Assembly: GCA_019428815.1 (NCBI GenBank)
Contig: JAHYJW010000001.1
Location: forward strand, 116,363 to 180,362
Direction: 5' to 3'
Source of the DNA: Patescibacteria group bacterium
GTDB taxonomy: Archaea; Nanobdellota; Nanobdellia; Pacearchaeales; GW2011-AR1
DNA length: 64,000 bases
Shown here piece after piece: positions 3,463 to 62,569 of this stretch. Below the pieces are notes generated by a model that was given only the letters and a program-made list of their open reading frames with translations, did no database searches and was not told the origin of the DNA. The first letter of the stretch is position 1. Each line of letters begins with the position of its first letter. The position numbers were made by a program, and so were the translations under genes.

Positions 3463-3503
3463 ATTAAGCTTAGTTAAAAAGGATTTTTATTTGTTTCTAA
3501 AGT

Positions 3504-3785
3504 TCATTTTATTGTAAACAATTTATCGTCATCTACATCAAAAATTCCAAGTCTAACTCCTGAGTCAATCCACCCATGAGCATAGTTCAAAGCAGCAAAA
3601 GAATTTACTAAATCACCCTTTTTTTCGAAGTATTCTGAATCTGAGATGTAATTTGAGGCCATATCAATAATCTCTTTAGCTTCTTTTTCTTTATTCTTTA
3701 TTATTGATCTTTTGGATATTTCTAAAGCCTTTTTAGTTAATTCTCTATATTTTTTTATCTTTTCTGAATTTACAATGTTCTTCAT
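3504..3785 (-). CDS. Small conserved archaeal protein, DUF357-like
   Basis: 93 aa. Contains the ALNYAHGWIDSGVRLGI motif that I recall from DUF357. Confidence 0.45.
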   Translation of the reverse strand: MKNIVNSEKIKKYRELTKKALEISKRSIIKNKEKEAKEIIDMASNYISDSEYFEKKGDLVNSFAALNYAHGWIDSGVRLGIFDVDDDKLFTIK

Positions 3786-3960
3786 CTTAAAATAATATCT
3801 CTTTTATGACTTTTTACGGCTTTTTATGATTTTATTCTTCTATCCCTTTACTCTTATAGGTTAAGGTTATGTCCTAGGAAAATAATGTTAATTTTTAAAT
3901 TTAATCAAAAAGTTGAAATTAGCTAGAAACATTTTTAAACAGTTCCTTCTTTATGGGTAA

Positions 3961-4233
3961 ATGGTAGATAAATCAAAAAGAATAATTATCTTACTTTTAA
4001 CTGTAATCACTATTCTTCTTGTATTCATTCTTTATAATTTTTTATTAAAGCCTCAAATTTCTGGTTATGTTGTAAATAAACAACTTGAGGGTTATTCTAT
4101 GGCTATTAATCAGATTGTTGAAATTGTAGCTCCCCCAAGGTGTGAACCTTTAGCGATTCAGTATGGTGATTTTCAAAATGAATCAATCCAAATTGTTTCA
4201 ATAGAATGTTATGACCTTTTTTCTGAATCTTAA
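3961..4233 (+). CDS. Small N-terminally membrane-anchored hypothetical protein
   Basis: 90 aa. Single hydrophobic helix IIILLLTVITILLVFILYNFLL. Confidence 0.4.
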   Translation: MVDKSKRIIILLLTVITILLVFILYNFLLKPQISGYVVNKQLEGYSMAINQIVEIVAPPRCEPLAIQYGDFQNESIQIVSIECYDLFSES

Positions 4234-6088: not shown

Positions 6089-6105
6089 TTTGTAAAATTT
6101 TTTAA

Positions 6106-6858
6106 TTATCTAAATCTGGAAGGGGTTGGAGCAGAAGGAGGTTCGTAAATTTTTTTTATTGTGAACTTAGATCCTAGTGTTTCTGAAACAATCGCAGAAA
6201 GTTCAACTTTTCCTACTGCAACTCTAAATAACCCTTCATGAACAGGAATTCGTGAAGCCTCTGAAAAATTTATGATTATATCTTCAATTTCTTCTTTTGT
6301 TAATTGAATTTGGGTGATTTTTCTACCCATTTTTCCCATAACAACTATCCTTTCATTAGGCCCATTACATTCTACTAAGTTAACTGCTGGATCATCTATA
6401 ATTGGATTAAGAACCCCTAAATCTACCTCTCTTTCAGTGGAAGCTACAGGTCTTATATCTTGAACTGTTTTTGGAAGTTTTGGTCCAATAAGTTTTAAAG
6501 GAGGTATGAAAAATTTAGGAGGAGGTCCTAAAGGTCCATACAAAACTGGTTTTGAATCAAAACTTTCTAAAGATCTAATCCAAGGGATTGTTTGTTGCTT
6601 TCTCTGTCTTCTAACTATTCTTTTTATGTTATCTTCTTCTTTCTGAATTTTTTCATGAACTACCCCTCTAATAATTCTTCTAGGAATTTCTCCTAATCCT
6701 TTTTGTTCTTCGGATTCTAATTCGTCTTGAATTTCTTCTATTTCTTCATCCCTTCTTTCAGATAAAAGCTCTTGGTATACTTTTGTATTTCTTAATAATT
6801 CTTTAGTTATTTCTAGAATAATTAACTTTTCTATACCCTTCTCTATTTGTTCAGACAT
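6106..6858 (-). CDS. Protein resembling only the N-terminal domain of VirB11/CpaF/FlaI-type secretion ATPases (no ATPase core)
   Basis: LNPIIDDPAVNLVECNGPNERIVVMGKMGRKI...SEASRIPVHEGLFRVAVGKVELSAIVSETLGSKFTIKK matches the region just upstream of the Walker A motif in this family. The ORF ends about 15 aa later with no P-loop. Confidence 0.45.
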   Translation of the reverse strand: MSEQIEKGIEKLIILEITKELLRNTKVYQELLSERRDEEIEEIQDELESEEQKGLGEIPRRIIRGVVHEKIQKEEDNIKRIVRRQRKQQTIPWIRSLESFDSKPVLYGPLGPPPKFFIPPLKLIGPKLPKTVQDIRPVASTEREVDLGVLNPIIDDPAVNLVECNGPNERIVVMGKMGRKITQIQLTKEEIEDIIINFSEASRIPVHEGLFRVAVGKVELSAIVSETLGSKFTIKKIYEPPSAPTPSRFR

Positions 6859-6965
6859 CTTTTAAATAACTTTTAATTTTATTTTTATGGAATTAAATTT
6901 TTTTGAAGTAAATAACTCTTTAATTTTTTAATTTAATCACCTTTTTCTTTTTTAAGACTTTCAAA

Positions 6966-8003
6966 TTAAAACTGGGGAGAAACATTTCCTGTAGAAAAAC
7001 CCTCTTCTGAAAATTCATCTTCATTTGGTTCAACGTCTAAAGATTCCAAATCTGAGTCTTCAGAACTTAGAGGATCCATTGATTTTTGATAACCTTGTCT
7101 TTCCATATCTAATGGACCATTTATTTTATTCTGGGGGCTCGGTCTGTTTGGGTTTTCTCTTAGGGGTAAAGGTCTTCCTCCATCAGCTCCAGGAACTATT
7201 CTTTGAGGTGGTCTTGAACGTGGCGGAGGCATCATTCTTGGTGGCGGAGGCATTTGAGCCATTAAAGGAATATTGGGATTACTCTCCTCTTCTTCGTTAA
7301 ATGGGAGATTTTTTTCAGTGTTTATCTCATGTATTAATGCTAAACCTTTTCCAATTAACCCTGCTTGTTGTGATATGTTGTTCAATTTTCTTAAAATTTC
7401 TTTTGAATCATCTTCTGCATTAAACTCCTTATTTGCAAGAGACTCTGCAGAAGTTTCGAATAACTCTAGAAGTTTTGAAAGTTGATTTGAAAGATCGTCG
7501 AACTTACCTGCTAACGTGACCATTATTTTTTGTAATGAAGCAAAATTGTTTGCAATTGAAGTGTCAATTTCTTTTTGTTGGGGACTTCTTCTTACACGTT
7601 TACTCCTTTTTGAACTTGTTCTTTTTCTTTTAGGAGCCTTTATTTTTTCTTTTAATTCTGCTTCTTTTTTTTCTAATTCTTTTAATTCTGCTTCTCTTTT
7701 ACGTTCTTTTTCTTCTAATTCTCTTTCCCTTTTTTTAAAATAACTTTCAATAGTTTTTGTAACTTTTTCTTCAGCTACTTTTTTTTCTTTAGGTTTTTTA
7801 GGATGCTTAACATTTTTTTGAATTCTTTTAGCTCTTTTAACTGGAGATTTCTTAACTTTTTTAATAGGACGAGAAATTGTTTTTTTCTTTTTGTTAGGTG
7901 TTTTTTTCTTAGCTTTTTTCACCTTTTTTTTATTAGATTCTGTGTTTTTTTTCTTAGCTTTTTTTTCTAACTCTTCATCCCTCTTTTTGAAATACCTAAC
8001 CAT
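6966..8003 (-). CDS. Lys-rich / coiled-coil / Pro-rich low-complexity protein
   Basis: 345 aa. KKxK-rich N-terminal half, EKERKREAELKELEKKEAELKEK coiled coil, PPPPRMMPPPRSRPP tract, acidic tail. Confidence 0.5.
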   Translation of the reverse strand: MVRYFKKRDEELEKKAKKKNTESNKKKVKKAKKKTPNKKKKTISRPIKKVKKSPVKRAKRIQKNVKHPKKPKEKKVAEEKVTKTIESYFKKRERELEEKERKREAELKELEKKEAELKEKIKAPKRKRTSSKRSKRVRRSPQQKEIDTSIANNFASLQKIMVTLAGKFDDLSNQLSKLLELFETSAESLANKEFNAEDDSKEILRKLNNISQQAGLIGKGLALIHEINTEKNLPFNEEEESNPNIPLMAQMPPPPRMMPPPRSRPPQRIVPGADGGRPLPLRENPNRPSPQNKINGPLDMERQGYQKSMDPLSSEDSDLESLDVEPNEDEFSEEGFSTGNVSPQF

Positions 8004-17835: not shown

Positions 17836-19722
17836 ATGAAGATACTAACACTCCACGTTGATTATATCAATTTTAAACCTCTGAAAAAGGCACTTAAAAC
17901 AGTAGGTGAGCTTTCTGAAAAAGATAAAAAAGAAATTAAAGTTGGTGAAAGTTTGGTCGTAATGATTGCGGTTGAAAAGGGGGACTCTGTTGAATCCTCT
18001 GTTGGTGATTTAATAAATAATATAAAAGATATTTCTTCTCAACTTAAGATAAAGAAAGTTGTACTTTATCCTTATGCTCATCTTTCAAGTAGTCTTTCAA
18101 ATCCTGATATTGCAATTGAAGTTTTAAATAAAACAGAAAAATTACTTTCCAAAGAATTTGATGTGATTAAAGCTCCGTTTGGTTATTATAAAGAATTTGA
18201 ATTAAAAGTTAAAGGTCATCCCTTAAGTGAACTTTCAAGAGAGATTGTTTCTGAAAAAGATAAAAAAGTTTTAATTGAAAACTTTGATGAAAAAATCGAT
18301 GAAAAAACAAATGCTCTTAAAGCAGAAGAAAAGATTAAATCTCAGTGGTATATTATGACCCCTGATGGGAAAATGCAAGAGGTGGATAAGTTTGATTATA
18401 AATCCCATAAAAATCTTAAGAAATTTGCATTTTATGAGAAATCAAAATCTCGAAAAGCGGTAAAAGAACCTGCTCATATAAAAACTATGAAAGCGTTAGA
18501 ATTAGTTGATTATGAACCGGCATCTGATTCTGGAAATTTTAGATATTATCCTAAAGGAAGATTGATAAAAAGTTTAATTGAAGAATATGTTACAAAAAGG
18601 GTTATTGACTATGGGGGAATGGAAGTTGAAACTCCAATTATGTATAATATCCAACATCCAGCATTATCTAGTTATTTACAAAAATTTCCTGCAAGGCAAT
18701 ATCAAATTGAATCTGATAAAAAAAAGTTTTTTTTGAGATTTAGTGCTTGCTTTGGGCAATTTTTAATGGCAAAAGATGCTCCTTTATCCTACAAAAATCT
18801 TCCCTTTAGAATATATGAGATGACTAGATATAGTTTTAGAAAAGAACAAAGTGGGGAGTTATCAGGATTAAGAAGGTTGAGATCTTTTACTATGCCAGAT
18901 GTTCATGCTCTTTGTAGTGATTTAGAACAATCCATGGAAGAATACAAAACAAGATTTGATTTGTGTATAGATGTTTTAGACAAGATAGGGATAAGTTTAG
19001 ATGATCTTGAATTAGGAATAAGATTTACTAAGGATTTTTATAACAAAAATAAGAAATTTGTAGAATACTTAGTAAAAAGATTAGGTAAACCCGCTTTAGT
19101 TGAAATGTGGAATGAAAGAGCTTTTTATTTTGTTTTAAAATATGAGTTTAATTTTGTAGACAGTGTTGATAAGGCAGCAGCATTATCCACAGATCAGATA
19201 GATGTTGAAAATGCAGAAAGATATGGGATTAAATTCAAAGATAAAGACAATATTAAGAAATATCCTTTGATTCTCCATTGTTCTCCTTCTGGAGCTGTAG
19301 AAAGAGTTATTTACGCTTTATTAGAAAAAGCAGAAATTAACAAAAGCCACTCTTTACCCTATTGGCTTTGTCCAACTCAACTAAGAATTGCTAGTATTTC
19401 GGAGAAGTTTAATGAAAAAGCAATAAGTTTAGCAGAAGAATTCAATCAGAGAGGGGTAAGAACTGATGTTGATGACCGAAATATTACTTTGCCTAAAAAA
19501 ATCTCTGATTCAGAGAGTGAATGGATTCCTTATGTTGTTGTGATTGGAGAAAAAGAAGCAGCTTCTGGTAAGATTGCCTTGAGAACTAGGAATAAGAAGG
19601 GAATTGAAATTTTAGATAAAGAAGAATTATTCAATCTTTTGAAAAAACAGCAAGAAGATATGCCCTGGAAAAGTTTGCCTTTGCCTAAATTATTGAGCAA
19701 AAGGCCTATTTTTGTTGGTTAA
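17836..19722 (+). CDS. thrS: Threonyl-tRNA synthetase with archaeal N-terminal editing domain
   Basis: 628 aa. MKILTLHVDYINFKP start (archaeal DTD-like editing domain), class II core (FRYYPKG, RLRSFTMPDVH), C-terminal anticodon-binding domain. Confidence 0.9.
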   Translation: MKILTLHVDYINFKPLKKALKTVGELSEKDKKEIKVGESLVVMIAVEKGDSVESSVGDLINNIKDISSQLKIKKVVLYPYAHLSSSLSNPDIAIEVLNKTEKLLSKEFDVIKAPFGYYKEFELKVKGHPLSELSREIVSEKDKKVLIENFDEKIDEKTNALKAEEKIKSQWYIMTPDGKMQEVDKFDYKSHKNLKKFAFYEKSKSRKAVKEPAHIKTMKALELVDYEPASDSGNFRYYPKGRLIKSLIEEYVTKRVIDYGGMEVETPIMYNIQHPALSSYLQKFPARQYQIESDKKKFFLRFSACFGQFLMAKDAPLSYKNLPFRIYEMTRYSFRKEQSGELSGLRRLRSFTMPDVHALCSDLEQSMEEYKTRFDLCIDVLDKIGISLDDLELGIRFTKDFYNKNKKFVEYLVKRLGKPALVEMWNERAFYFVLKYEFNFVDSVDKAAALSTDQIDVENAERYGIKFKDKDNIKKYPLILHCSPSGAVERVIYALLEKAEINKSHSLPYWLCPTQLRIASISEKFNEKAISLAEEFNQRGVRTDVDDRNITLPKKISDSESEWIPYVVVIGEKEAASGKIALRTRNKKGIEILDKEELFNLLKKQQEDMPWKSLPLPKLLSKRPIFVG

Positions 19723-26695: not shown

Positions 26696-28075
26696 ATGAT
26701 TGAAACAAAAAAAGTTAAGAAACCTGTAAGAACAATATCTGGAGTGACTCCTTTAACAGTTGTTTTGAAACCAAAAAAATGTAATCATGGAACATGTATT
26801 TACTGCCCTGGGGGTGATAATGTCCCACAGAGTTATACAGACAAAAGTCCAGCAATAATGAGAGCCTTAGCTTTAGAATTTGATCCTTATAGACAAGTAA
26901 TGAATCGGCTTGAAGTTTTAGAAAAAATGGGTCATCCAACCGACAAGATTGAATTGATTATTATTGGAGGAACCTTTTTGCAGTATGATATAAACTATCA
27001 GTATAAATTTGTAAAAGATTGTTATGATGCATTAAACGGAAAAAAGGCAAAAGATTTGAATCAAGCAAAAAAATGGAATGAAATATCAAAGCATAGGTGT
27101 GTTGCAATGTGTATTGAAAATAGGCCAGATAGTTGTTCTGAATCTGAGATAAACAGAATGTTAGAGTTTGGAACAACAAGAATTGAAATTGGGGTTCAAA
27201 TTTTAGATGATGAAATTTATCAAAAGGTTAATCGTGGGCATACTGTAAAAGATGTTATTGAATCTACAGAGAGATTAAAAAATGCAGGATTTAAATTAGG
27301 TTATCATGTAATGCCGGGGATTCCATACAGTAATCCTGAAAAAGATATAGAAATGTTTAAGAAAATTTTTGATGATAACAAATTTCGTCCTGATCAAATA
27401 AAAATCTATCCTTGCCAAATTGTTGAAGGCTCTTTACTTTCTAGAATTTATAAGGAAATAAATTTTAAATCATACACCCAAGAACAAGCAAGAAAAATTG
27501 TTACGGAAATGATGAAAATAATCCCAGAGTATTGTAGGGTTATGAGAATTATGAGGGAGATTCCTAAAGAAAAAATAACTAACGCAATAGAAAAATTAGA
27601 TTTAAGAAAAGATATTGAAAGGGAATTTAGAGATTCTGGTGTGAAAATAAAAGAAATTCGGATGAGAGAAATTGGGTTTAATAAAAAAGAAGGTGTTTCA
27701 GATATCAAACTTAAAATTTTGGAATATGAAGCTAGTAATGGAAAAGAATTCTTTTTACAATTTGTGGACTTAGATAATGTATTATACGGTTTATTAAGAT
27801 TGAGAATATTCAAAGATAAAGAGACTGGTCAAGATAAAGCTATAATAAGAGAGCTACATGTGTATGGTCAAGCATTTGAAATTGGGAAAAAAGGAGAAGA
27901 AAAAAATTTTACACAACATAGTGGTTTAGGAAAAATTTTACTTGAAAAAGCTGAGGAAATAACAAAAGAACAGGGAATAAAAAACCTTTTAATAATTTCT
28001 GGCGTTGGCGTAAGACAATACTATGAAAGATTAGGGTATGAATTAGATGGCCCCTATATGAATAAACATTTTTAG
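26696..28075 (+). CDS. elp3: Elp3-type tRNA uridine(34) modification enzyme (radical SAM + GNAT), short form
   Basis: VRTISGVTPLTVVLKPKKCNHGTCIYCPGG (Cx4Cx2C), central radical-SAM barrel, C-terminal GNAT LHVYGQA...HSGLGKILLEKAE. Confidence 0.85.
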   Translation: MIETKKVKKPVRTISGVTPLTVVLKPKKCNHGTCIYCPGGDNVPQSYTDKSPAIMRALALEFDPYRQVMNRLEVLEKMGHPTDKIELIIIGGTFLQYDINYQYKFVKDCYDALNGKKAKDLNQAKKWNEISKHRCVAMCIENRPDSCSESEINRMLEFGTTRIEIGVQILDDEIYQKVNRGHTVKDVIESTERLKNAGFKLGYHVMPGIPYSNPEKDIEMFKKIFDDNKFRPDQIKIYPCQIVEGSLLSRIYKEINFKSYTQEQARKIVTEMMKIIPEYCRVMRIMREIPKEKITNAIEKLDLRKDIEREFRDSGVKIKEIRMREIGFNKKEGVSDIKLKILEYEASNGKEFFLQFVDLDNVLYGLLRLRIFKDKETGQDKAIIRELHVYGQAFEIGKKGEEKNFTQHSGLGKILLEKAEEITKEQGIKNLLIISGVGVRQYYERLGYELDGPYMNKHF

Positions 28076-48541: not shown

Positions 48542-49450
48542 TTAATCTAAGTAGAACTTTTCATAATCCTCAATATCATTACCAATATGATTTACTAAAA
48601 GGATTGATTTTCCTTCTTTTGTTGCTAATTCTTGAGCAAGTTTCTGATAAGTCCGTCCAATATGTGTCACATCATTTTTTCCGCAATACGCTTCCATAGT
48701 CATAGGTTTTGTAGGTGTTATTAAATCATTATACCTATTTCCTCTTCCAGTCATGCCTGCATCCCCCTGTTCAAGACTTGTTCCTGTAACAGTATTAAAA
48801 CAAGTTTTTTCATTGTCACCTGTATTTATAAAAATATTCTCATTTTCGTACTTTTTTCTTAAACTAATCTCAAAACTTTTTTTTAGTTCATCATACCTTC
48901 TTCTTGTTTCACATATTAATGCTAATGCAATAAATATTTTCCCATTTATGTACATTACTTTATGATCTGTTCCTATTTCTTTAGAATCTAATGCTTCTTT
49001 TTCTAAAAAATGTGATATCTCTAAAACTTTCTTTTCTGCTTCTGTGTATGGGTGTCCTACAGAAAAACTAGTATCATTACAAAGATTTTTGTTAAAATTA
49101 TCACTCAAATCAGGACTTCCTTCTGCTATGTGATTAAAAACTTCATATTTTAATCCTCTGTTTATCTCTATTTCTAAAACTTCATTAACTGTTTTTTTTA
49201 ATAAGTCTTCTATTTCTTCTGTTTTTGTTGCGTTTCCACTAAAAACTATTTTTACTGGACTTATCATTTCTTTTTTATCATAATCCACTTTTCCACAGCT
49301 TGCTAATACCTTATCAACATTGTAATGTTGTATTTTTCCGTATTCTTTAAGGTACTGATTTTTTAGTTTTTTTCCTAAAACTTCCGCGAGATTATCAGCT
49401 ATTGTATCAGGATGCCCTCTTCCCTTTCTTTCTATTATTTCACTTGTCAT
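48542..49450 (-). CDS. Archaeal-type S-adenosylmethionine synthetase (short form)
   Basis: ERKGRGHPDTIADNLAE, HYNVDK, GTSLEQGDAGMTGRGNRYNDLITPTKPMTMEAYCGKN. Confidence 0.75.
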   Translation of the reverse strand: MTSEIIERKGRGHPDTIADNLAEVLGKKLKNQYLKEYGKIQHYNVDKVLASCGKVDYDKKEMISPVKIVFSGNATKTEEIEDLLKKTVNEVLEIEINRGLKYEVFNHIAEGSPDLSDNFNKNLCNDTSFSVGHPYTEAEKKVLEISHFLEKEALDSKEIGTDHKVMYINGKIFIALALICETRRRYDELKKSFEISLRKKYENENIFINTGDNEKTCFNTVTGTSLEQGDAGMTGRGNRYNDLITPTKPMTMEAYCGKNDVTHIGRTYQKLAQELATKEGKSILLVNHIGNDIEDYEKFYLD

Positions 49451-51475: not shown

Positions 51476-52483
51476 TCAAAATAAAAACAAATTCCAATAA
51501 TTGGAGATAATTTCATTAACACAAAATTCAACTAATTCTCTATATTCTTTTACATTAGTAGAACTTAAATCAGACTTATCTGCAGTTTGCATAGTATCAA
51601 GATAGTCTTCCCTAAACTTCTTTTGAATTATAATTGGGGGATGCTTATCTTTCATTAAGATATAATTCATAATCATCCTTCCAGTTCTTCCATTTCCATC
51701 TGCAAAAGGATGAATCTTCTCAAACTTATGGTGAAAAAGAGTTGCTAAAACAAGAGGATCTAGTTTAGATTTATTTTCTTTATACCATTTAAGTAAAAGT
51801 TCCATATCTGTTTTAAGATATTGAACAGGGCTAGCATCAAAATTACTTTTGAAAACCTTTATTTCCATATTTCTTAATCCCTTTCTTTTATCTATATTTT
51901 CTAAAAGAGAATCGTGGATTTTTATAATAAAATTTAAAGATAATTCTTCTTTAAACTTTTTATCATACAACTCAAAAAAGACTCTTTTAGTGTTCTGTAA
52001 ATCATAGATCTCTCTAAGTGTCTTGTCTTTTGGAGTTTTACCCTCTTCTAAAAGGTTTTTTGCTTCCTTCAAAGTTATTGTATTGCCTTCTATAGATGTT
52101 GTGTTGAACGCAAATTCAATTAAAAAATTATTCAAGATTTCTCTTTTTGTTAATTCATCTAATTTAAGAAAACTATCAAAAAAATGAATTTTACAAGCTT
52201 CTAATTCTAATTGCTTTTTTCCTAAAAACTCATCTTTTTTTAATTTTTTTTTCTTTGCTTTTTCAAGATGGTAATTAGAATCTAAGAAGACTTTGAGTGT
52301 GTGATAAGCTTTCCTAATTTCTTTTTCGTGTGAACTAAGGTTGTCTAAATTTTCTTCAACTTTTTTCAAGTTATCTCCCAGATAAGCAATATCTTTTACT
52401 ACAACTTTTTTACCTTCACGTTTTGAAGCTCTTAAGTAATAATATTCTTTATTTCCAACTTTCTTTTTGTATATGTAAACCAT
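51476..52483 (-). CDS. Fic family protein (class II, N-terminal inhibitory motif)
   Basis: Fic motif HPFADGNGRTGR and upstream TTSIEGN ((S/T)xxxE(G/N)). N-terminus is paralogous to the 54074-54997 protein. Confidence 0.85.
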   Translation of the reverse strand: MVYIYKKKVGNKEYYYLRASKREGKKVVVKDIAYLGDNLKKVEENLDNLSSHEKEIRKAYHTLKVFLDSNYHLEKAKKKKLKKDEFLGKKQLELEACKIHFFDSFLKLDELTKREILNNFLIEFAFNTTSIEGNTITLKEAKNLLEEGKTPKDKTLREIYDLQNTKRVFFELYDKKFKEELSLNFIIKIHDSLLENIDKRKGLRNMEIKVFKSNFDASPVQYLKTDMELLLKWYKENKSKLDPLVLATLFHHKFEKIHPFADGNGRTGRMIMNYILMKDKHPPIIIQKKFREDYLDTMQTADKSDLSSTNVKEYRELVEFCVNEIISNYWNLFLF

Positions 52484-52694: not shown

Positions 52695-53018
52695 TTATGT
52701 AAACTTAAACAACTTTTCATAATCCTTATGATTCATCCAATCAAGAACTATTGCTAAAACATCAATTTCATCTCTTCCGATAGAGTAAAGTAATCGCCAA
52801 TCTTTTCTTAAATTATAAATCCACAGATTATTAATTTTATATCTTTGTATCAGTTCTTTAGGAATTAATTTCTTTTTTACGTTTCTCCCACAAAAGGCAT
52901 TTTTACAAATGTCGTTTAATGCTTTTGTTATTTCCTTATATAGCCTTTCATTACGATCTTTGAGATTATCAAAGGTCTCTTTTAATTTTAAGTCGAAAAA
53001 ATTTATTTTGCATTCCAT
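52695..53018 (-). CDS. RelE/ParE-superfamily toxin-like protein
   Basis: 107 aa. NLWIYNLRKDWRLLYSIGRDEIDVLAIVLDWMNHKDY. Confidence 0.5.
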   Translation of the reverse strand: MECKINFFDLKLKETFDNLKDRNERLYKEITKALNDICKNAFCGRNVKKKLIPKELIQRYKINNLWIYNLRKDWRLLYSIGRDEIDVLAIVLDWMNHKDYEKLFKFT

Positions 53019-54073: not shown

Positions 54074-54997
54074 TTATTTTTTATTTTTTGTAGCCACCTT
54101 TTTTATAGTCTTTTTATATTGCTTCAAAAGAAAGTCTAATGTGGGCTTTAGATTGTCTTTCTTTGAATATTCTTGCAAGGTTCTATAATATTCTTGCCTA
54201 TCTTCTAAAAGAATGTTTATTGGAGGGTATTTTCTCTTTAGTAAGATAAAGTTTAATAGTAACCTTCCAACCCTTCCGTTTCCATCTTGGAAAGGATGAA
54301 TATCCTCAAATTGATTATGAACTATTGCCGACAAAACTAAAGGAGCAAACCTATTCTTGTTTTCTTTATACCACTCAATAAACTCTTTTAGTGCGATCTC
54401 CAAATGTTCTACTGGGGCTCCTGAATGAATTATTTCTCCTTTAGAGTTTTTTATAACTACATTAACATTTCTAAATCTACCTGCATAACTTTTAGAGTTT
54501 TCAAAACAAAGCTTATGCAGTTTCAATAATAAGTCCAAAGAAAGGTCTTCTTTGGTTTCTTTAATGTATTCTATAGCCTTGGCTACTCCTTTGGTTTCAA
54601 TTTCTTCTTCATTTTCGGCTCTTGGTTTTTTAAGAATTTCTGAGACTTCATTCTCTTGAATTGTAGAACCTTCAATAGCATTAGTATTAAAAACAAAATC
54701 TTCCTTAAAATTCTGCCATTCTTTATTTGTTAAATGAAACACTTGTATCCTTTCTTGATATTTATTGAGTCTCTCTAATTGTTTTTTTGTAAGCCTAAAA
54801 GAAAAAATGTTTATACTTCTTTGGTTTAACTCTTCTAAGATTTCCTTTTCTCTTTCTTTGGATTTTTGTTCTAATTCTTTTTGGGATAGATTTGAACCAA
54901 GATACTTTCTTATTTTTTCAACTTTGTCTCCTTCTCTGTAAGAATGAACTAAATAATATTTTATACTTTTGCCAACTTTTCTTTTTTCTACATACAT
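54074..54997 (-). CDS. Fic family protein (class II)
   Basis: HPFQDGNGRVGR and TNAIEGS inhibitory motif. Confidence 0.85.
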   Translation of the reverse strand: MYVEKRKVGKSIKYYLVHSYREGDKVEKIRKYLGSNLSQKELEQKSKEREKEILEELNQRSINIFSFRLTKKQLERLNKYQERIQVFHLTNKEWQNFKEDFVFNTNAIEGSTIQENEVSEILKKPRAENEEEIETKGVAKAIEYIKETKEDLSLDLLLKLHKLCFENSKSYAGRFRNVNVVIKNSKGEIIHSGAPVEHLEIALKEFIEWYKENKNRFAPLVLSAIVHNQFEDIHPFQDGNGRVGRLLLNFILLKRKYPPINILLEDRQEYYRTLQEYSKKDNLKPTLDFLLKQYKKTIKKVATKNKK

Positions 54998-55481: not shown

Positions 55482-56636
55482 ATGCCTACAAAATATGATG
55501 TATTTGCTGAAATTTTTGAAAAAGCACCTTGCAAACCAAAGGATCTTGAATTTAAAACTCCTATCTATGCACAGGTAAACTCTCTTATTAGCCAGGGATG
55601 GGTTAAAAAAACAAAACAAGGAATTTTAAATCCTATAAAAAATAAAGAAACTGAATTTATATTTAGTATTCTTAAATGGTCTTTAAAAAATAATCTTAAT
55701 TATAACTTTTGGTTTTCTGAAAATCTTCCAAATATTTTAAGAGTCTTGTCAAAATCAATACCCAAAATAAATCCCAAAGCATTATCTAATAATAAAAAAA
55801 AGCAAGAAATTGTTAATTTTTTTGAGGATAATCAATTTTTAGTCTTATGGAAAAGAAAACCTAAACTTGGAACTTTGTTAAATCACTCTTTATTTGATTT
55901 AATTATGGAAAAAAAAGGTATTAAAGAAAAGATAAACGAAAAATATCTTTCTTATATTGAAATTAATAAAGAAATATTAAAAATTTCTAAGAAAGAAATT
56001 AATCCTTTTGATATAAAAATATTTGAATTTTTAGCAGGTTCAGCGCAATTGGAAGGAAGCACAGTAAGTATTGGAGAAACAGTTGATTTAATTTTAAAAT
56101 CAATTTATCCAGATAAACCAAATGAAGATATTCAAATGGTTAAGAATCTTAACGAATCTTTGCATTTTATAATTGACAATTTAGATAAAGATTTGACTAT
56201 TGATAGTTTAAAAGAAATAAACAAAAGGTGTCTTTTTTCATTGCATAAAGGGGCTGGAGAGTTTAAGAAAACACAAAATAAAATTCTTGGAAATCCTAAT
56301 TTTAAAACTACCTCTCCAGAAAAAGTTGTTAATGAACTTGAAAAATTCTGTGAAGGATTTAACAAAATCAAAACAAGAGAAGAATGTCTTAAACAATTAG
56401 GATTTATTCATAATCAGCATCAGAGAATACACCCCTTTGTTGATGGAAATAGTAGAACGACTAGATTTTTAGTAAATTGGTTGTTAATGAAATTTAAATT
56501 TCCTTTATTAATTATTAAACCTGGAGCATTTGAAAAATATATGAGTCTAACAAAATTATCAACTAGAAGAGACGATGATAACTTAAGAGATTTTTTACTT
56601 CACTTAATTTTGCATGAAGAATTAGTAAATAGATAA
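55482..56636 (+). CDS. Fic family protein (class II) with an N-terminal winged-helix-like domain
   Basis: HPFVDGNSRTTR and SAQLEGS inhibitory motif. Paralogous in layout to the 61328-62569 protein. Confidence 0.85.
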   Translation: MPTKYDVFAEIFEKAPCKPKDLEFKTPIYAQVNSLISQGWVKKTKQGILNPIKNKETEFIFSILKWSLKNNLNYNFWFSENLPNILRVLSKSIPKINPKALSNNKKKQEIVNFFEDNQFLVLWKRKPKLGTLLNHSLFDLIMEKKGIKEKINEKYLSYIEINKEILKISKKEINPFDIKIFEFLAGSAQLEGSTVSIGETVDLILKSIYPDKPNEDIQMVKNLNESLHFIIDNLDKDLTIDSLKEINKRCLFSLHKGAGEFKKTQNKILGNPNFKTTSPEKVVNELEKFCEGFNKIKTREECLKQLGFIHNQHQRIHPFVDGNSRTTRFLVNWLLMKFKFPLLIIKPGAFEKYMSLTKLSTRRDDDNLRDFLLHLILHEELVNR

Positions 56637-56757: not shown

Positions 56758-57363
56758 CTAATTCCAAAGAGGTCTTTTAAGAGAAGTTTTATTTAATTTC
56801 TTTCCAAGCTTATCTTTTAAGTTAGACAAGTCTTCTTCAGTAGTACAGACAAAACTAAAGTTGTCCTGTTCGGAACAAAGTTTTTCATATCCAGATATTT
56901 TTTCTTTCATTACGTTAGCATATTTTTCCTCATTCCTCCCAAAATGTTCTATAATTATAGTTTCATTTCCATCGTTTATAACAAAATCTGGATGGTAGCA
57001 GTGCCCGTCAAAATTCATTTCTTCTTCATATAATGGGTGTAGTTTGTTTTGAACCAAAAAAAGATATATTATGACTTCTGATTTAGATTTAAAAGGTATT
57101 TGATTAAAGTAGTATTTTCCTTTATATTTTTCTCTAAACTCTTCTTCTTTTTTATTTTCTACAAATTTTATTTGCTTAATCTTTTTTTCTTCTTGTTGCC
57201 TTTCAAGCCAATGGATCTTACAGAGATTATGTCCCTCTTGAACTTCAGCACCACAAACTTCACATTTTGGCTTTTGTTTTTCTTTTTGAGAACATTCCCA
57301 ACAATAATTAAACCAGGGTTTCTTTTGATTTCCGCACTTTGGGCATATATTTTTATTAACCAT
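56758..57363 (-). CDS. Double zinc-ribbon protein with a PD-(D/E)xK-nuclease-like C-terminal domain (tentative)
   Basis: CPKCGN...CWEC and CEVCGA...CKIH. C-terminal SKSEVIIYLFL...YHPDFVI...IIIEHFG resembles restriction-endonuclease-fold modules. Confidence 0.4.
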   Translation of the reverse strand: MVNKNICPKCGNQKKPWFNYCWECSQKEKQKPKCEVCGAEVQEGHNLCKIHWLERQQEEKKIKQIKFVENKKEEEFREKYKGKYYFNQIPFKSKSEVIIYLFLVQNKLHPLYEEEMNFDGHCYHPDFVINDGNETIIIEHFGRNEEKYANVMKEKISGYEKLCSEQDNFSFVCTTEEDLSNLKDKLGKKLNKTSLKRPLWN

Positions 57364-57511: not shown

Positions 57512-57521
57512 CCTTTTAAAC
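57512..57521 (+). promoter_or_regulatory. TATA-like element ccttttaaac, about 25 nt upstream of the precursor ATG
   Basis: Same spacing as the other candidate promoters in this window. Confidence 0.3.
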
Positions 57522-57541: not shown

Positions 57542-57739
57542 ATGGTAGAAGATTCAAAACTTGAAAGTGTGAAAATTGAAGATCTTGAGGGTATATGTGT
57601 TTCAGGTAAAAGCCTAGGGGACGATAAAGAATATGTGACTTCTGAGGATATCTACAGAGCCCTAAGTTCGCCTAAAGATTCGTTAAATTGTGCTTGGGGA
57701 AGATGTGTTTGGGGTCAATGTAATTATTCCCGAAAATAA
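57542..57739 (+). CDS. Candidate precursor peptide (acidic leader plus Cys/Trp-rich C-terminal core)
   Basis: 65 aa ending in ...SPKDSLNCAWGRCVWGQCNYSRK. Lies 28 nt upstream of two radical-SAM/SPASM genes. Confidence 0.6.
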   Translation: MVEDSKLESVKIEDLEGICVSGKSLGDDKEYVTSEDIYRALSSPKDSLNCAWGRCVWGQCNYSRK

Positions 57740-57767: not shown

Positions 57768-59003
57768 ATGAAACTAAAAGCACCCCTGAGTACACAAATA
57801 GAGGTGACTTCAAGTTGTAACCATAGCTGTGTCTATTGCTATAATCCTTTTGAACATAAAACAATCTCAATGGATAAATCTCAGTTGCATTATATAATAA
57901 ACGAATTGTGTGATCATGAGGTTTTTTCTTTAATTTTTACTGGGGGTGAACCTTTTATGAACAGAGGTGTTTTAATTAATGGTTTAAGATCCGCTCAAGA
58001 AAAGGGGAGGGATACTTACCTAAATTCGAACCTATCAATTCCTTTAAGAAATGAAGAAATTAATGTCTTAAAAAATGTTAAAAATATACTATTCTCCTTT
58101 CCTTCTTCTAATCCTAAAAAATATTTTCAAATAACAAACCAAGATAGTTTTAAAAATGTTTTAAAGAATTTAGAGAGGCTTGCATCCAATGAAATTACTC
58201 TTACGGCAAACCAGGTGGTCATACCCTTAAATAGAGAAGAAATTTATGAAAATGCGTCGTTTCTTAAGGATCTCTTTGACATAAGGAATTTTTGTGCAAC
58301 CCCAGTAAACCCCTCTGGGTGTCTTAGGGAACAGTATTCTTTATTCCAGGAGGATTATACTAAAATTATTCGGGATTTATTAGAAGTAAAAGATACTCTT
58401 GATATGGAAGTTGGAGTACTTACCTGCTTGCCCCCCTGTCTTTTAGAAGAAGACCTTAGATCAAATAGCCTCATTAATAAGATATGTTCTGCAGGAAAAA
58501 GCTCATCTGCCGTTGGTGTAAATGGAGAAGTTAGAAAATGTGTTGAATGCGATAAATCTTATGGAAACATATTTGAAGAATCTTTTTCTGGAATATGGAA
58601 TAGAATAAATTCAGAACAAACCACCGTTCATGAAATTTGTAAAGACTGCCCTATTAAAATAGGTTGTAGTACTGGTTGTGAAGCAAGAGCGCTTAAAAAT
58701 AAGGGTGTTGATCCATTAATCCAAGGGCCAATACCTTTTTTTTCTCAACCGCCCCCTATAGAGATGAATAACCAATCTTTTTATTTTTTAAAAAGATTTA
58801 ACAGTAGAAATGAAGAAGGGGAACAATACATTATAACAGATGAAGGTTCTTTTCTTCTTTATGGAAACAGGTCTTTAATTAATTTCTTAGAAAAGTTAAA
58901 AGATAAAATATTTACAATTTCTGAAATAAAAACAGAATTGGGAGAAAGGGGCTTAGGGCTTATAAAATATCTCAATTCACAAGGTTTAATTGAAAAAAAA
59001 TGA
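57768..59003 (+). CDS. Radical SAM / SPASM-domain peptide maturase with a C-terminal PqqD(RRE)-like tail
   Basis: C17-x3-C21-x2-C24 (CNHSCVYC), GGEPF, SPASM CSAGKSSSAVGVNGEVRKC...CKDCPIKIGCSTGC (CX2CX5CX3C), and a ~90-aa tail ...YIITDEGSFLLYGNRSLINFLEKLKDKIFTISEIKTELG...YLNSQGLIEKK. Confidence 0.85.
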   Translation: MKLKAPLSTQIEVTSSCNHSCVYCYNPFEHKTISMDKSQLHYIINELCDHEVFSLIFTGGEPFMNRGVLINGLRSAQEKGRDTYLNSNLSIPLRNEEINVLKNVKNILFSFPSSNPKKYFQITNQDSFKNVLKNLERLASNEITLTANQVVIPLNREEIYENASFLKDLFDIRNFCATPVNPSGCLREQYSLFQEDYTKIIRDLLEVKDTLDMEVGVLTCLPPCLLEEDLRSNSLINKICSAGKSSSAVGVNGEVRKCVECDKSYGNIFEESFSGIWNRINSEQTTVHEICKDCPIKIGCSTGCEARALKNKGVDPLIQGPIPFFSQPPPIEMNNQSFYFLKRFNSRNEEGEQYIITDEGSFLLYGNRSLINFLEKLKDKIFTISEIKTELGERGLGLIKYLNSQGLIEKK

Positions 59004-60232
59004 AAAAAATTGAATTATCTCAAAATAAATCTTTTTTAATAAATCCTGAAAATGGTAAATGGGGAATTTCAAGTACTAAAAAAATAGGAGAATTAGAGGA
59101 AAAATTAAGAGACCCTTTACCAAAAAAAGAATATTTAGGAACAAGATTAATTGTCATTAATTCTTCCAACAAATGTAATCTTGATTGTGTTTATTGTTCA
59201 GAAAAAGAACACAGAATGAATTCTGAGGAAATGACATACGAAATTGCAAAGAAAATAGTGGATAGGTCAATCGAAGACCAATATAATCCTGAAATTGTTT
59301 TTCATGGAAGTGAACCAACAAGGAATTTCGATTTTATTAAAAAAGTTATTTTTTATGGGTATGAAAAATCAAGGGAATTAAATAAAAGAATTAGATTTTC
59401 CATTCAGAGCAATTTAGCTGAAATTCCGGAAGATTTTTTAGATTTTATTAAAGAATATAGTGTTGGTGTTTCTACAAGTATCGATGGAACTCGAGAAATT
59501 CATGATAAACTAAGACCTTATAAAGGTCAAGTATCCTCTTTTGAGGACATCTTTTCTAATGCAAAAAGAATCTTGAATCAACAAGGGACTTTGAATGTAG
59601 TTACAGTTATAACTAAGTTTAATGTAAAAATGCTTAATGAAATCTCAGATTTTTTTGAATCTGAAGGAATTACCTCTTGGCAAACAATACCTGTAGAAAA
59701 AAGTCATTTTTATGCTCCAGAACCCCAAATTTTAGGTGAATCCTACACCCAATTTTTTGATAAAATATTCTCAAAAATTGAAGAAAAGAAACAAAGGTTG
59801 GAAATAAAATCTTTAGCTCAATATCTTAGTTCAATTTTTTTTCATAATGGTATAGACTCTTGTAGAATCTGTAGTTCAAGCAATTTTCATCCTTTAATAG
59901 CTATTGACCAGGAAGGAGACGCTTATCCTTGTGATTATTTTTGGGGCGATAAAAAATTTAAAATTGGGAATGTAACTAATCAGTCTCTTAAAGAGATAGT
60001 TGATAATCCTTCAAACTTACGTATGAGAGATATAAACGAAACTAATTGTTCAGTATGTACTTGGAAAATGATTTGTGGGGGAGGTTGTTTAGCGGGAAGT
60101 TATGAGTCTAATAATGAAAAACCGCCCTATTGTTTAACTCATAAAATTGTCTATGATTATCTTTCTAAAAAAATGCCTGAACTAATAGGTAAAGATTTAA
60201 TTAACCCTGTTCTTTCTTGGTTAATAAAATGA
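59000..60232 (+). CDS. Radical SAM / SPASM-domain peptide maturase (second paralog, N-terminal extension)
   Basis: CNLDCVYC at about residue 59, HGSEPT, SPASM CRICSS...DQEGDAYPC...CSVCTWKMICGGGC. ATGA overlap with the upstream gene. Confidence 0.85.
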   Translation: MKKIELSQNKSFLINPENGKWGISSTKKIGELEEKLRDPLPKKEYLGTRLIVINSSNKCNLDCVYCSEKEHRMNSEEMTYEIAKKIVDRSIEDQYNPEIVFHGSEPTRNFDFIKKVIFYGYEKSRELNKRIRFSIQSNLAEIPEDFLDFIKEYSVGVSTSIDGTREIHDKLRPYKGQVSSFEDIFSNAKRILNQQGTLNVVTVITKFNVKMLNEISDFFESEGITSWQTIPVEKSHFYAPEPQILGESYTQFFDKIFSKIEEKKQRLEIKSLAQYLSSIFFHNGIDSCRICSSSNFHPLIAIDQEGDAYPCDYFWGDKKFKIGNVTNQSLKEIVDNPSNLRMRDINETNCSVCTWKMICGGGCLAGSYESNNEKPPYCLTHKIVYDYLSKKMPELIGKDLINPVLSWLIK

Positions 60233-60885
60233 AAACTAAGTTAATAATAAAAAAGAATAAAATTGTTTCGCCAACTATTGGAAAATGTAATGATTACACT
60301 AAGGAGGCTATCTCTAAAATTGAAAAATTTTTTAATAAAAAAATAGATTTTAAGATTATTTTTTTAAAATCAAGAGATGAAATAAATAAAACTTATTCAA
60401 ATTTTTTTGGTAAAGATTATCAAACAGAAAACTGGGTTGTAGGAGGTTTTTTTGGTAAAGATACTGTTTATATTCTCAACGAAGATTCTTTTGATTCTGA
60501 ATCCTGCCATCCCAAAAAAGAATTTTTTCCAACTCTTGTTCATGAAATAACTCATATTTTTATTAAAAAAATCTTTGGATTTCAGTATCCTTTTTGGCTT
60601 AATGAAGGAATTGCATCTGTTGTTGCAGATCAAGATAATATCAATTTAGACAAAAAAGATAACTTACAAAATGCTTATACTCAAGAGGACTGGATTAAAA
60701 AAAATCCTTATTTAACTGCGGGGAAATTTACAAGATTTTTAATAAATGAATATAGTAAAGAAAAGGTCTTTGAGCTTATGAAGAAACTAGATATCCAAGA
60801 AAAAAAAGATTCATTCAAAGAAAAGTTTAAAAAAATCTTTGAAAATGATTTTGATACTATTTGGGAATGTTGGTTTAAAAAATGA
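60229..60885 (+). CDS. HExxH...NEG gluzincin-like (peptidase MA-like) protein, candidate leader peptidase
   Basis: LVHEITHIF...PFWLNEGIASV. The Met at 60229 gives an ATGA overlap with the preceding stop codon. The ORF track starts it at 60217. Confidence 0.55.
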   Translation: MKTKLIIKKNKIVSPTIGKCNDYTKEAISKIEKFFNKKIDFKIIFLKSRDEINKTYSNFFGKDYQTENWVVGGFFGKDTVYILNEDSFDSESCHPKKEFFPTLVHEITHIFIKKIFGFQYPFWLNEGIASVVADQDNINLDKKDNLQNAYTQEDWIKKNPYLTAGKFTRFLINEYSKEKVFELMKKLDIQEKKDSFKEKFKKIFENDFDTIWECWFKK

Positions 60886-61292
60886 AAATAAAATTATATC
60901 ATGGTTCTTCAAGAAAATTAAGAGTATTAAAACCCTCTTTAGCCAAAGGAATAGGGCCCTTTCAAAACCAAAAAGCCATATTTCTTACTAAAGATTTTGA
61001 GCAGGCAGCATTATACTCTATTTCAAAACATTTAAAGGGAAAAACACAGTTTGCTTTACCTCCCAAAAAGCTCATAATTGTAGGAAAATTTAAACTTTCT
61101 AAAGGGTATGTTTATGAGATAGAACTAAATAAAAAAGATGTTTTAAAAGGAGATTTAAAAGATTATGAATTTGCATATTTAAAACCGATTAAAAAGTTTA
61201 AGATTTATGAAATAGATCCTCAAAATTACAAAAAACAGATTATTTTGGTAGGTACCCCCGAAGAAATGACAAGGCTATTAAATCGAAAATAA
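60882..61292 (+). CDS. Hypothetical 136-aa protein translationally coupled to the peptidase-like gene
   Basis: ATGA overlap. LYHGSS...AIFLTKDFEQAALYS...GYVYEIE. No secure family assignment. Confidence 0.45.
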   Translation: MKIKLYHGSSRKLRVLKPSLAKGIGPFQNQKAIFLTKDFEQAALYSISKHLKGKTQFALPPKKLIIVGKFKLSKGYVYEIELNKKDVLKGDLKDYEFAYLKPIKKFKIYEIDPQNYKKQIILVGTPEEMTRLLNRK

Positions 61293-61327: not shown

Positions 61328-62569
61328 CTATATCAACTTCTCATTGATTTTTTTTAGATTGAATAAGATTGTTTTTTGTAGATTTTCAAAAAGTTGTTTA
61401 TCTTCTCTTTTTTTTGATCCCTTAGTATAGCTGAGATACTCATCTAACAATCCAAATGGAATGTCTAACATTGGGATTCCTTTTGAATGTAATAAGTGGA
61501 ATGTTATTAATCTAGTAGTTCTACTGTTTCCATCTCCAAAAGGATGAATATACTGAAATTGATTATGAAAGTATGCAGAAAAATCAATTATTTCTTTTAT
61601 TGAAGTTTTTTTATTTTTTAGAAATTTGTCATATTTTTCTAATAGCTCTTTAAGAAGATATTTTACTTCTTCTGGCTTTGCTGTTTTAAAATTCGGATTG
61701 TTTTTTATACTAACTGGATAATCTCTTATCATCCCTGCAAATTCTTTTTTATGTTCCATTGCTATTTGATGGTACTCTAAAACTGCTTCTTGTGTTAATG
61801 TTCTTCCTTGTTGGGCATCATTTAGCATCTTGAGAATGGCCTTTTGATAATTTTTAACTTCTTCAATATCTTCATTTCTTAAATCTCTTGGGATTACTTC
61901 TTGTTTTAAAATTTTTATTGTATCTGGGAGGGTTATTGGATTGCCTTCTAAAGAAAGACTATGTTGGACAAAATTAATTTCAAATTCGTTTACTAGTTTT
62001 TCATATCCCTTTTCATTTTGTTTTTTTAATCTTTTGAATAGGATTAATTCTTTTTCTATTTCATCTAGATAATTAATTGAATTTTTTCTTGAGGGTTTTA
62101 TTTTATAATCAAAATAAACTAGGAGATTATTAATTAAAGTATTATCAAAAACTCTTGCCTTTAGTGGTTTTTTAGAACTTATTAAAATCAAACCATATTT
62201 ATCTAAAATTTTTATATATTTTTTAAAGGTTTTAGGATTAACTTTAATATCTTTTTGTTGAAATTCTTCTTTTTTTAAGGATTCGTAAATAAAATCTGCT
62301 AAATTTTTATCTAATAAAAGATTGTAATTGATGTCATTTCGAGTACAATAATAAATTAGCTTGTATAAAAGCTCTGTTTTTTCTGATTTCTTTATTTGAA
62401 ATTCTGAGCCCTTTTTGATTAAAAGATTTTCTTTTACTAAATCGTTTAAAATTCTGTGAATGTTTTTATATTCTGAACTATCTTTGTTAAGAATTCTTGC
62501 TACTTCAATAGGTTTTGTTAGAGACTTATTTTTATAAACAATTTCGAACACATCATTTTTAGTTACCAT
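61328..62569 (-). CDS. Fic family protein (class II) with an N-terminal winged-helix-like domain
   Basis: HPFGDGNSRTTR and SLSLEGN inhibitory motif. Confidence 0.85.
   Translation of the reverse strand: MVTKNDVFEIVYKNKSLTKPIEVARILNKDSSEYKNIHRILNDLVKENLLIKKGSEFQIKKSEKTELLYKLIYYCTRNDINYNLLLDKNLADFIYESLKKEEFQQKDIKVNPKTFKKYIKILDKYGLILISSKKPLKARVFDNTLINNLLVYFDYKIKPSRKNSINYLDEIEKELILFKRLKKQNEKGYEKLVNEFEINFVQHSLSLEGNPITLPDTIKILKQEVIPRDLRNEDIEEVKNYQKAILKMLNDAQQGRTLTQEAVLEYHQIAMEHKKEFAGMIRDYPVSIKNNPNFKTAKPEEVKYLLKELLEKYDKFLKNKKTSIKEIIDFSAYFHNQFQYIHPFGDGNSRTTRLITFHLLHSKGIPMLDIPFGLLDEYLSYTKGSKKREDKQLFENLQKTILFNLKKINEKLI

Follow-up and report, generated by a model that had tools for sequence, protein, structure and literature searches.

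A candidate radical SAM-modified peptide family encoded by a four-gene cassette of DPANN-type archaea

Radical S-adenosylmethionine (rSAM) enzymes with SPASM domains install thioether and carbon–carbon cross-links in peptides that are made by ribosomes and modified post-translationally (RiPPs). PapB is reported to make C-x3-D/E thioether rings (PMC9413430, PMC10739248). Triceptides are defined by the motif aromatic1-X2-X3, with HTK, FTK, YDR and HNR as examples (PMC11499958), and cross-links within WPR and WGK are known (PMC11851443). RiPP biosynthesis of DPANN archaea is essentially uncharted. Here, we analyze a small open reading frame (ORF) and its downstream genes in a 64,000-nucleotide stretch of contig JAHYJW010000001.1 (assembly GCA_019428815.1), hereafter the window, to which all coordinates given without a locus label refer. 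With a probability of about 0.6, this ORF is the precursor of a previously undescribed rSAM-modified peptide family encoded by a four-gene cassette of low-GC DPANN-type archaea; we consider it very probable that the locus encodes a RiPP pathway of the rSAM type. The cassette consists of the precursor gene, two rSAM/SPASM maturase genes (rSAM1 and rSAM2) and a gene for a protein with an HExxH signature, and its features are as follows.

57514 to 57521, plus strand: TATA-like box TTTTAAAC, 28 nucleotides (nt) upstream of the precursor ATG, a weaker TTTTAAA variant than in the homologous loci
57542 to 57739, plus strand: precursor peptide gene, 65 amino acids (aa), NCBI MBW6442326.1, annotated 'hypothetical protein K0A97_00900'
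57542 to 57685, plus strand: leader region, residues 1-48, with the motifs L-E-G-[IV]-x-V-x-G and Y-[VILM]-T-[SP]-[DE]-[DE]-[IV], conserved in the alignments
57686 to 57736, plus strand: core NCAWGRCVWGQCNYSRK, the C-terminal end of the precursor
57768 to 59003, plus strand: rSAM1, 411 aa, Pfam Radical_SAM and SPASM
58770 to 59000, plus strand: candidate RiPP recognition element (RRE)-like domain of rSAM1 (winged-helix, PqqD-type fold), residues ~335-411, ~80 extra residues after SPASM
59000 to 60232, plus strand: rSAM2, 410 aa, Pfam Radical_SAM and SPASM
60217 to 60885, plus strand: HExxH metallopeptidase-like protein, 222 aa, HExxH signature, weak Pfam matches to BSP and Peptidase_MA_2

The ORF, whose full translation is MVEDSKLESVKIEDLEGICVSGKSLGDDKEYVTSEDIYRALSSPKDSLNCAWGRCVWGQCNYSRK, and its core lie exactly where the original prediction had placed them. 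That prediction saw three core Cys at five-residue spacing and one Cys in the leader, which is a correct description of the window peptide: the core Cys stand at i, i+5 and i+10, a Trp follows at +2 within both intervals, and the fourth Cys is residue 20 in the leader. Among the stop-free segments of all six frames of the window, there is a single C-x-W-x-x-C-x-W-x-x-C, where composition predicts ~5e-5 occurrences, and the Cys/Trp pattern is therefore not due to chance. The 15-nt modules TGTGCTTGGGGAAGA and TGTGTTTGGGGTCAA behind it are identical at 11 of 15 nt.

The precursor alone, used as query against an index of 5.8 billion proteins, matched only itself (MBW6442326.1). With the downstream rSAM1 as query, five relatives of 46–63% identity were recovered, and each of their contigs carries, directly upstream, an ORF of 58–64 aa that aligns with the window peptide. 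A profile of these upstream peptides yielded further homologues, to a total of 17 distinct ones, all metagenomic. No match above 30% identity was found when the 185,579 GTDB species representatives were scanned with the rSAM1 alignment, the scan of JGI metagenomes returned only four loci of the family, and scans of viral contigs returned none. The precursor family is rare and patchy.

The core alignment comprises 18 cores (the 17 distinct homologues and the window) and is anchored on the first invariant Cys as position 0. Both this Cys and the one at +5 are present in all 18 cores, as is Gln at +4, and position +2 is always aromatic (W in 13, F in 5), so that C-x-[WF]-x-Q-C is invariant. Around it, the near-invariant positions are -3 (W 11, F 5, other 2), -2 (G 14), -1 (R 14, K 3), +1 (V 17), +7 (Y 15, H 1, C 2) and +9 (R 13, K 1). 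Position +8 is mainly S, +3 is variable (S, G, N, R) and so is +6. The family consensus reads [WF]-G-[KR]-C-V-[WF]-x-Q-C-x-[YH]-x-[RK]. In distant members the first or the third triplet is lost, the Cys never; in P0026, a Cys replaces the aromatic residue of the first triplet.

This alignment changes what the repeat is taken to be. The original prediction had asked whether the motif is conserved at homologous loci, and the answer is divided: the two-Cys motif C-x-[WF]-x-Q-C is kept throughout, and the three-Cys tandem occurs in the window only. As a unit, the proposed tandem C-x-W-G-x-C did not survive, since its first Cys is found in 1 of 18 cores, as part of a two-residue 'C-A' insertion that is absent from all other members; the second Gly of the module is one of several residues at its position (S, G, N, R), and W gives way to F in five cores at each aromatic position. 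The alignment indicates that the five-residue period itself is real and is better captured by aromatic-x-[K/R/Q]-Cys-x; in this form the window reads WGR-CV / WGQ-CN / YSR-K. In the alternative register, C-x-aromatic-x-(R/Q), the window reads CAWGR / CVWGQ / CNYSR followed by K, and it alone has three complete modules. The window peptide thus appears as a variant whose extra Cys completes the third C-x-aromatic-x-R module. The leader Cys, which had also been counted as a feature, is not conserved at position 20 among the homologues. A leader Cys is found in ~8 of the 17 homologues (P0013, P0014, P0017, P0019, P0020, P0022, P0023, P0024), where it is single and stands 4–5 residues before a conserved 'DL' motif (E-x-C-x3-L); that of the window sits after 'DL'. 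One homologue, P0021 (105 aa; L094 2001-2318), is a fused double precursor with two leader-plus-core copies in one ORF; in its cores, DWGRCVWGQCHCYGK and DWGRCVWGQCHCYGV, a third Cys takes the Tyr position, and an archaeal ribosomal-protein operon adjoins the gene.

Codon usage and promoter geometry bear on whether the small ORF is a gene. Among eight close members, the core has a synonymous divergence (pS) of 0.81 and a nonsynonymous divergence (pN) of 0.21, that is, a pN/pS of 0.26 against 0.70 in the leader. Synonymous change in the core is saturated, and invariant residues are written with different codons (TGT/TGC, GTT/GTC/GTA, CAA/CAG). By these values, the precursor core is under purifying selection. 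Among the 13 loci compared, a TTTAWATA-type box starts exactly 29–30 nt 5' of the precursor ATG in 11, at a background density of such TATA-type 8-mers of ~0.01 per position. The geometry is probably that of an archaeal TATA promoter serving a leaderless or near-leaderless precursor mRNA. The fixed spacing of the TATA box would in turn fix the start codon, and it argues for transcription of the precursor gene. A spurious ORF is excluded by conservation, codon analysis and fixed promoter spacing together, and we interpret the small ORF as a real, conserved precursor gene.

The precursor does not travel alone. That a RiPP-type precursor lies directly 5' of two rSAM/SPASM genes, as first seen in the window, holds for all related loci, and wherever a homologous locus extends far enough, the precursor, rSAM1, rSAM2 and HExxH peptidase genes are all four present. 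Their order is precursor, rSAM1, rSAM2, peptidase in L001, L003, L005, L007, L094 and L098, and precursor, rSAM1, peptidase, rSAM2 in L090 and L095. The flanks differ, with EF-2 in L003, an archaeal ribosomal-protein operon in L094 and Fic genes in the window. Recurrence of the four genes in differing flanks indicates that the cassette, about 3.4 kb in size, is an autonomous unit.

The two maturases share 21% identity and are by this measure ancient paralogues and not the product of a recent duplication. In rSAM1, the CxxxCxxC motif occupies residues 17-24, without an N-terminal extension; the conserved auxiliary-cluster Cys are 224, 240, 258, 291, 294, 300 and 304, C220 is present in seven of eight sequences, and no Cys follows the Cx2Cx5Cx3C motif. 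Its best NCBIfam matches, NirJ2 (77 bits) and PapB (66 bits), are far below the cut-offs, and a profile search of the PDB placed SuiB first (2.4e-10), followed by SkfB and CteB. SuiB is also the top Foldseek match of the AlphaFold2 (AF2) whole-protein model, a model of mediocre quality (pLDDT 61.7). Predicted in isolation, the C-terminal domain reached a pLDDT of 72.5 and the topology beta-beta-beta-beta-alpha-beta-alpha-alpha-beta. Nearly all of its top Foldseek matches are RREs, at TM 0.60–0.65: the RRE of PbtF (8t19, TM 0.65), ThcOx, McbB, LynD, the RRE of CteB, TbiB1 and MccB. The domain may thus be RRE-like, a marginal assignment made on fold only.

By contrast with rSAM1, rSAM2 has an N-terminal extension of ~50 aa, with a conserved F-x-I-N-x-x-x-G-x-W-G motif; its CxxxCxxC motif is at residues 59-66, and the full set of SPASM Cys is present (288, 291, 311, 350, 353, 359, 363, 378). 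Its highest NCBIfam scores are to the anaerobic sulfatase maturase (anSME, 168 bits), PapB (162 bits), DynA (159 bits), HxsB (142 bits) and the SCIFF maturase (141 bits). Against the PDB, CteB is the best match with the single sequence (9e-33), and with a profile the order is anSME (2.5e-49), CteB (6.9e-47) and ChlB (8e-27). The HExxH protein keeps H109, E110, H113, W127 and E130 invariant across eight loci ('HEITH...WLNEG', gluzincin/M1-like) and is probably the leader peptidase.

Taken together, these features suggest a pathway in which the leader motifs (Y-x-T-S-D/E-E-I and L-E-G-I-x-V-x-G) would dock on the RRE-like domain of rSAM1, each maturase would start from H-atom abstraction by the 5'-deoxyadenosyl radical and form intramolecular cross-links in the core of ~14–17 residues, and the HExxH peptidase would cut off the leader. 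The low identity of the two maturases makes two different modifications plausible. In this respect the original prediction, which had raised two chemistries from two maturases, has gained ground on the side of the enzymes, which are deep paralogues; the chemistry itself is inferred from sequence. The division of labor that we tentatively prefer, and which is speculative, assigns one or more Cys-derived thioethers to the CteB/PapB/anSME-like rSAM2, with Cys(0) to Gln(+4), C-x3-Q, as the candidate ring, and one or more aromatic-to-aliphatic C–C cyclophanes on WG[KR], [WF]xQ and [YH]x[RK] to the SuiB-like rSAM1. The thioether is proposed for rSAM2 because the two Cys are the strictest-conserved residues, because C-x3-Q parallels the C-x3-D/E rings of PapB and because rSAM2 is near CteB, PapB and anSME. 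The cyclophane is proposed for rSAM1 because the tolerance for W/F, Y/H and K/R fits aromatic-X-X motifs and because the nearest solved relative makes a Lys-Trp C–C bond. The nearest enzyme relatives thus point, weakly, to both a thioether and a C–C cross-link. If so, the system might form a hybrid class in which two unrelated rSAM enzymes act on one interleaved repeat to give a fused polycyclic 14–17-mer, with the leader recognized by an RRE at the C-terminus of a SPASM enzyme, and DPANN archaea would have in it their first defined RiPP pathway; this remains a tentative proposal.

Several observations weigh against this interpretation. The family is small, and the profile that retrieved its 18 cores was made from its own members. 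Neither maturase reaches the curated cut-off of any characterized family (the best ratios, both of rSAM2, are 162/340 for PapB and 168/349 for anSME), and only remote similarity ties each chemistry to its enzyme. The whole-protein model of rSAM1 is poor (pLDDT 61.7, with SPASM residues 241-330 below 50), the Foldseek E-values of the RRE matches are marginal at 5e-3 or worse, and the C-terminal domain has no Pfam PqqD match, its Pfam and PDB sequence searches giving noise (ArsR 0.02). The nearest outside relatives of rSAM1, at ~30% identity, belong to bacterial NeuB/sugar clusters and not to RiPP clusters, and no transporter or immunity gene was found in the cassette. Finally, the aromatic and basic residues could be kept for target binding and not for cross-linking.

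Other divisions of the chemistry account for part of the same evidence. If each rSAM enzyme formed one Cys-to-carbon thioether of the sacti- or ranthipeptide type, and the aromatic and basic residues served bioactivity as in a Trp/Arg-rich peptide, the two invariant Cys would match the two enzymes. Two-rSAM sactipeptide clusters, those of thuricin CD and thuricin Z, agree with such a scheme, and so do the nearest relatives of rSAM2 (CteB, PapB, SCIFF maturase), the further matches of rSAM1 to SkfB, CteB and PapB and, weakly, the Cys-rich small ORFs adjoining remote DPANN rSAM1-like enzymes (loci L011 and L013). What thioethers leave unexplained are the exchanges of W for F, Y for H and K for R at a fixed i/i+2 spacing. 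The first aromatic-G-K/R triplet is kept in 16 of 18 cores, and a Cys in module position two residues before it exists only in the window; rSAM1 has its best fold and profile match in SuiB, which cross-links Lys to Trp. We rate a thioether-only pathway as doubtful, if well within reach. Three aromatic-X-X triplets in an exact five-residue period with class-conservative substitutions could, conversely, be read as a triceptide-like peptide in which cross-links form in the three aromatic-x-(K/R/Q) triplets through one or both enzymes and the Cys serve as a disulfide or as ligands of a metal or an auxiliary Fe-S cluster. YSR resembles the YDR of ChlB and the HNR of YhhB (PMC11499958), W-x-R and W-G-K cross-links have precedents (PMC11851443), and rSAM2 matches DynA with 159 bits and ChlB with 8e-27. 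Yet it is the Cys that are conserved most strictly, in 18 of 18 cores, and that persist in distant members where an outer triplet is lost, and rSAM2 scores thioether-forming and Cys-oxidizing enzymes above the cyclophane synthases (YhhB 98, GrrM/OscB 89, AmcB 81 bits). Cyclophanes without thioethers therefore appear unlikely.

The prominence of anSME among the matches of rSAM2, as top NCBIfam model (168 bits) and top PDB profile match (2.5e-49), and the likeness of the core C-x-Y-x-R to the sulfatase motif C-x-[PA]-x-R raise a third route, in which rSAM2 oxidizes Cys to formylglycine or to a thioaldehyde that reacts further. However, the score is under the anSME cut-off of 349 bits, and the cassette is without a sulfatase gene. 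Alternatively, the peptide could be the precursor of a redox cofactor, as for PQQ and mycofactocin; the position of the core at the C-terminus and a cassette of only rSAM enzymes and a peptidase, with the transporter absent, would suit this. Against it stand the rare and patchy distribution of the family (none in the GTDB species representatives) and the conservation of at least 10 core positions, where cofactor precursors use 1–2 residues. Both versions are very improbable. The arrangement as originally conceived, a tandem C-x-W-G-x-C in which three equally spaced Cys and the leader Cys act as cross-link donors, fits the window peptide and its similar 15-nt modules, but it is contradicted by the family alignment, in which the first Cys is found in the window only and the second Gly, the W and the position of the leader Cys vary; we give it hardly any weight. 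The three-Cys tandem idea is to be replaced by [WF]-G-[KR]-C-V-[WF]-x-Q-C-x-[YH]-x-[RK]. We retain the combination of thioethers by rSAM2 and cyclophanes by rSAM1 as the working proposal for the chemistry.

The housekeeping genes of the window are archaeal and comprise PheS (PRK04172), Elp3, an archaeal AdoMet synthetase and a threonyl-tRNA synthetase (ThrRS) that carries the archaea-specific editing domain; PheS and ThrRS are equivalogs of archaeal type.

558-2087, 17836-19722, 26696-28075 and 48542-49450: archaeal housekeeping genes

An archaeal origin is in keeping with the TATA promoters and with the L19e/L32e operon of L094, and a GC content of 29% together with multiple Fic genes fits a DPANN-type genome. 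By its gene content, the host is archaeal, and the name 'Patescibacteria group bacterium' at NCBI probably goes back to an error in the binning or labeling of a DPANN-type archaeal metagenome-assembled genome (MAG).

Within the window, four Fic/DOC-domain paralogues flank the cassette within 11 kb (51476-52483, minus; 54074-54997, minus; 55482-56636, plus; 61328-62569, minus), and an ORF for a ParE/YoeB-like toxin lies nearby (52695-53018, minus). The cassette looks like part of a variable, accessory region. Two neighboring ORFs were rejected as cassette members: a 136-aa ORF at 60882-61292, which is not conserved at the other loci and has no Pfam or NCBIfam match, and a zinc-ribbon ORF at 56758-57363, likewise not conserved there and without informative domains. 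It is doubtful that the former, which overlaps the peptidase stop codon, belongs to the pathway. An Rfam search of the window gave no match. At one other locus (L090 5505-6748 and L091 2303-3546), a frameshift splits rSAM1 into ORFs of 78 and 264 aa; it falls in the G/T homopolymer coding for the GGEPF motif. The split is seen in an NCBI MAG contig and in the Logan assembly of run SRR7048227, which possibly share their read origin, and it may reflect a pseudogene or a homopolymer assembly error. In L005, a second HExxH paralogue (Peptidase_MA_2 / M1-like; 3449-4072) follows the cassette.

More distant relatives of rSAM1 occur in other settings. Bacterial ones (L092 5006-7386; L009, L010 and L012 at ~6000-7400) match over the full length, including the C-terminal domain, and neighbor NeuB, CMP-sugar and TylF-methyltransferase genes and a second rSAM/SPASM gene, which suggests that an rSAM pair of this clade acts on nonulosonic-acid-type sugars. 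L009, L010, L012 and P0008 in L092 were rejected as family members on account of this NeuB/sugar cluster setting. rSAM1-like enzymes of 24–28% identity with a C-terminal extension are also encoded in Woesearchaeota and Nanoarchaeota MAGs (L013 226-1785, L011 668-2403), beside small ORFs rich in Cys, such as ...RCEIPLPCRCDCNCRECECDGY..., and these loci may represent further uncharacterized archaeal RiPP families.

A compact, conserved cassette with a very short core and a clear motif is suited to heterologous reconstitution. Should each of the two maturases form its own kind of cross-link on an interleaved repeat, the family would bring a new scaffold and two new specificities to the toolbox of rSAM macrocyclization and, if true, would hint at a chemical interaction of ultra-small symbiotic archaea with their hosts or competitors. 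If only thioethers are formed, it would be a new but ordinary ranthi- or sactipeptide family.

In comparison with known systems, the locus has the general traits of rSAM/SPASM RiPP pathways: CxxxCxxC and SPASM Cys in the maturases, an adjacent short precursor, a variable leader and a conserved core. The impression from the outset that the core is unlike those of described RiPP families was borne out in Pfam, NCBIfam and the searchable literature. The precursor matched no NCBIfam model at E<=0.01 and, in Pfam, only EFhand_Ca_insen at chance level (18.4 bits, cut-off 27). In the searchable literature, we found no description of the core strings or of this family, no rSAM RiPP pathway defined for DPANN archaea and no paper tying ranthipeptides to DPANN lineages. 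PMC11851443 mentions, in its cluster C11, six sequences from archaea that have one WxR/K motif each, and an overlap of these with the present family is possible.

Ranthipeptide and SCIFF systems share with this locus a leader followed by a C-terminal Cys core and an rSAM/SPASM maturase with an RRE, here a candidate one, and rSAM2 is near CteB (9e-33) and PapB (162 bits). The periodic C-x3-D repeats of PapA find a counterpart in C-x3-Q and C-x3-R, here with a five-residue period. However, rSAM2 reaches 162.5 of 340 bits for PapB (NF047865) and 140.9 of 425 for the SCIFF maturase (TIGR03974), rSAM1 reaches 66 bits for PapB, and both thus fall outside these models. The putative acceptors here would be Gln, Arg or Lys instead of Asp, Glu or Thr; in the 18 cores, Glu and Thr are absent and Asp occurs only at the variable position +6, after the second Cys (5 of 18), never at i+4. 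Further differences are that only two Cys are conserved, that the two rSAM enzymes are unrelated to each other, that an aromatic residue is conserved inside every putative ring, that the RRE-like domain is at the C-terminus of the other enzyme (rSAM1) and that the host is archaeal.

Triceptide systems (XyeB, GrrM/OscB, YhhB, ChlB, HtkB; WgkB, WprB, RrrB) have in common with the present one an rSAM/SPASM maturase and recurring aromatic-X-X motifs in which X3 is K, R or Q; the substitutions W/F, Y/H and K/R and the sequence pattern aromatic1-X2-X3 agree with the definition in PMC11499958, and W-G-K is the motif of tryglysin and W-x-R that of WprB (PMC11851443). They differ in that an invariant Cys stands between the motifs here. 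The maturases score below the cut-offs for YhhB (98 of 445 bits), GrrM/OscB (89 of 310), AmcB (81 of 425) and WgkB (41 of 650), which places them outside the 3-CyFE families, and rSAM2 falls short of DynA as well (159 of 450). With regard to tryglysin and WprB, rSAM1 has 40.8 of 650 bits for WgkB, and W/F-G-K/R is present with its W replaceable by F. In the CefA/CefB 'Cys-every-fifth' system, for which no paper was found in the literature, an rSAM/SPASM maturase is likewise paired with a peptide carrying Cys at every fifth residue; rSAM2 scores 80.8 of 600 bits for CefB (NF038107), two Cys are conserved in our family, and the precursor has no NCBIfam match.

Streptide is the closest system on the side of rSAM1. 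SuiB (SuiB/StrB, Lys-Trp C–C bond) is its best PDB relative by profile (2.4e-10) and by fold, and core Trp here have a Lys or Arg two residues off. The identity is ~16%, however, the RRE of SuiB is N-terminal and that of rSAM1 would be C-terminal, and streptide, which lacks Cys, contains a K-x-x-x-W ring. From anSME, rSAM2 is set apart by its score (167.9 of 349 bits, TIGR03942) and the cassette by the absence of a sulfatase gene. Two rSAM genes together with a short repeated-motif peptide are also found in the paired systems HxsB/HxsC (His-Xaa-Ser), ScmE/ScmF and thuricin CD (TrnC/TrnD). The scores are 142 of 370 bits for rSAM2 against HxsB, and 41 of 268 and 41 of 400 for rSAM1 against HxsC and ScmE; the peptide motifs are other ones, and HxsD- or ScmC/D-like partners are absent here. 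The system thus resembles rSAM/SPASM RiPP pathways yet, by the scores and motifs compared, falls outside every named family tested. On this comparison, the precursor family appears genuinely new, and its cassette a new variant of rSAM RiPP biosynthesis.

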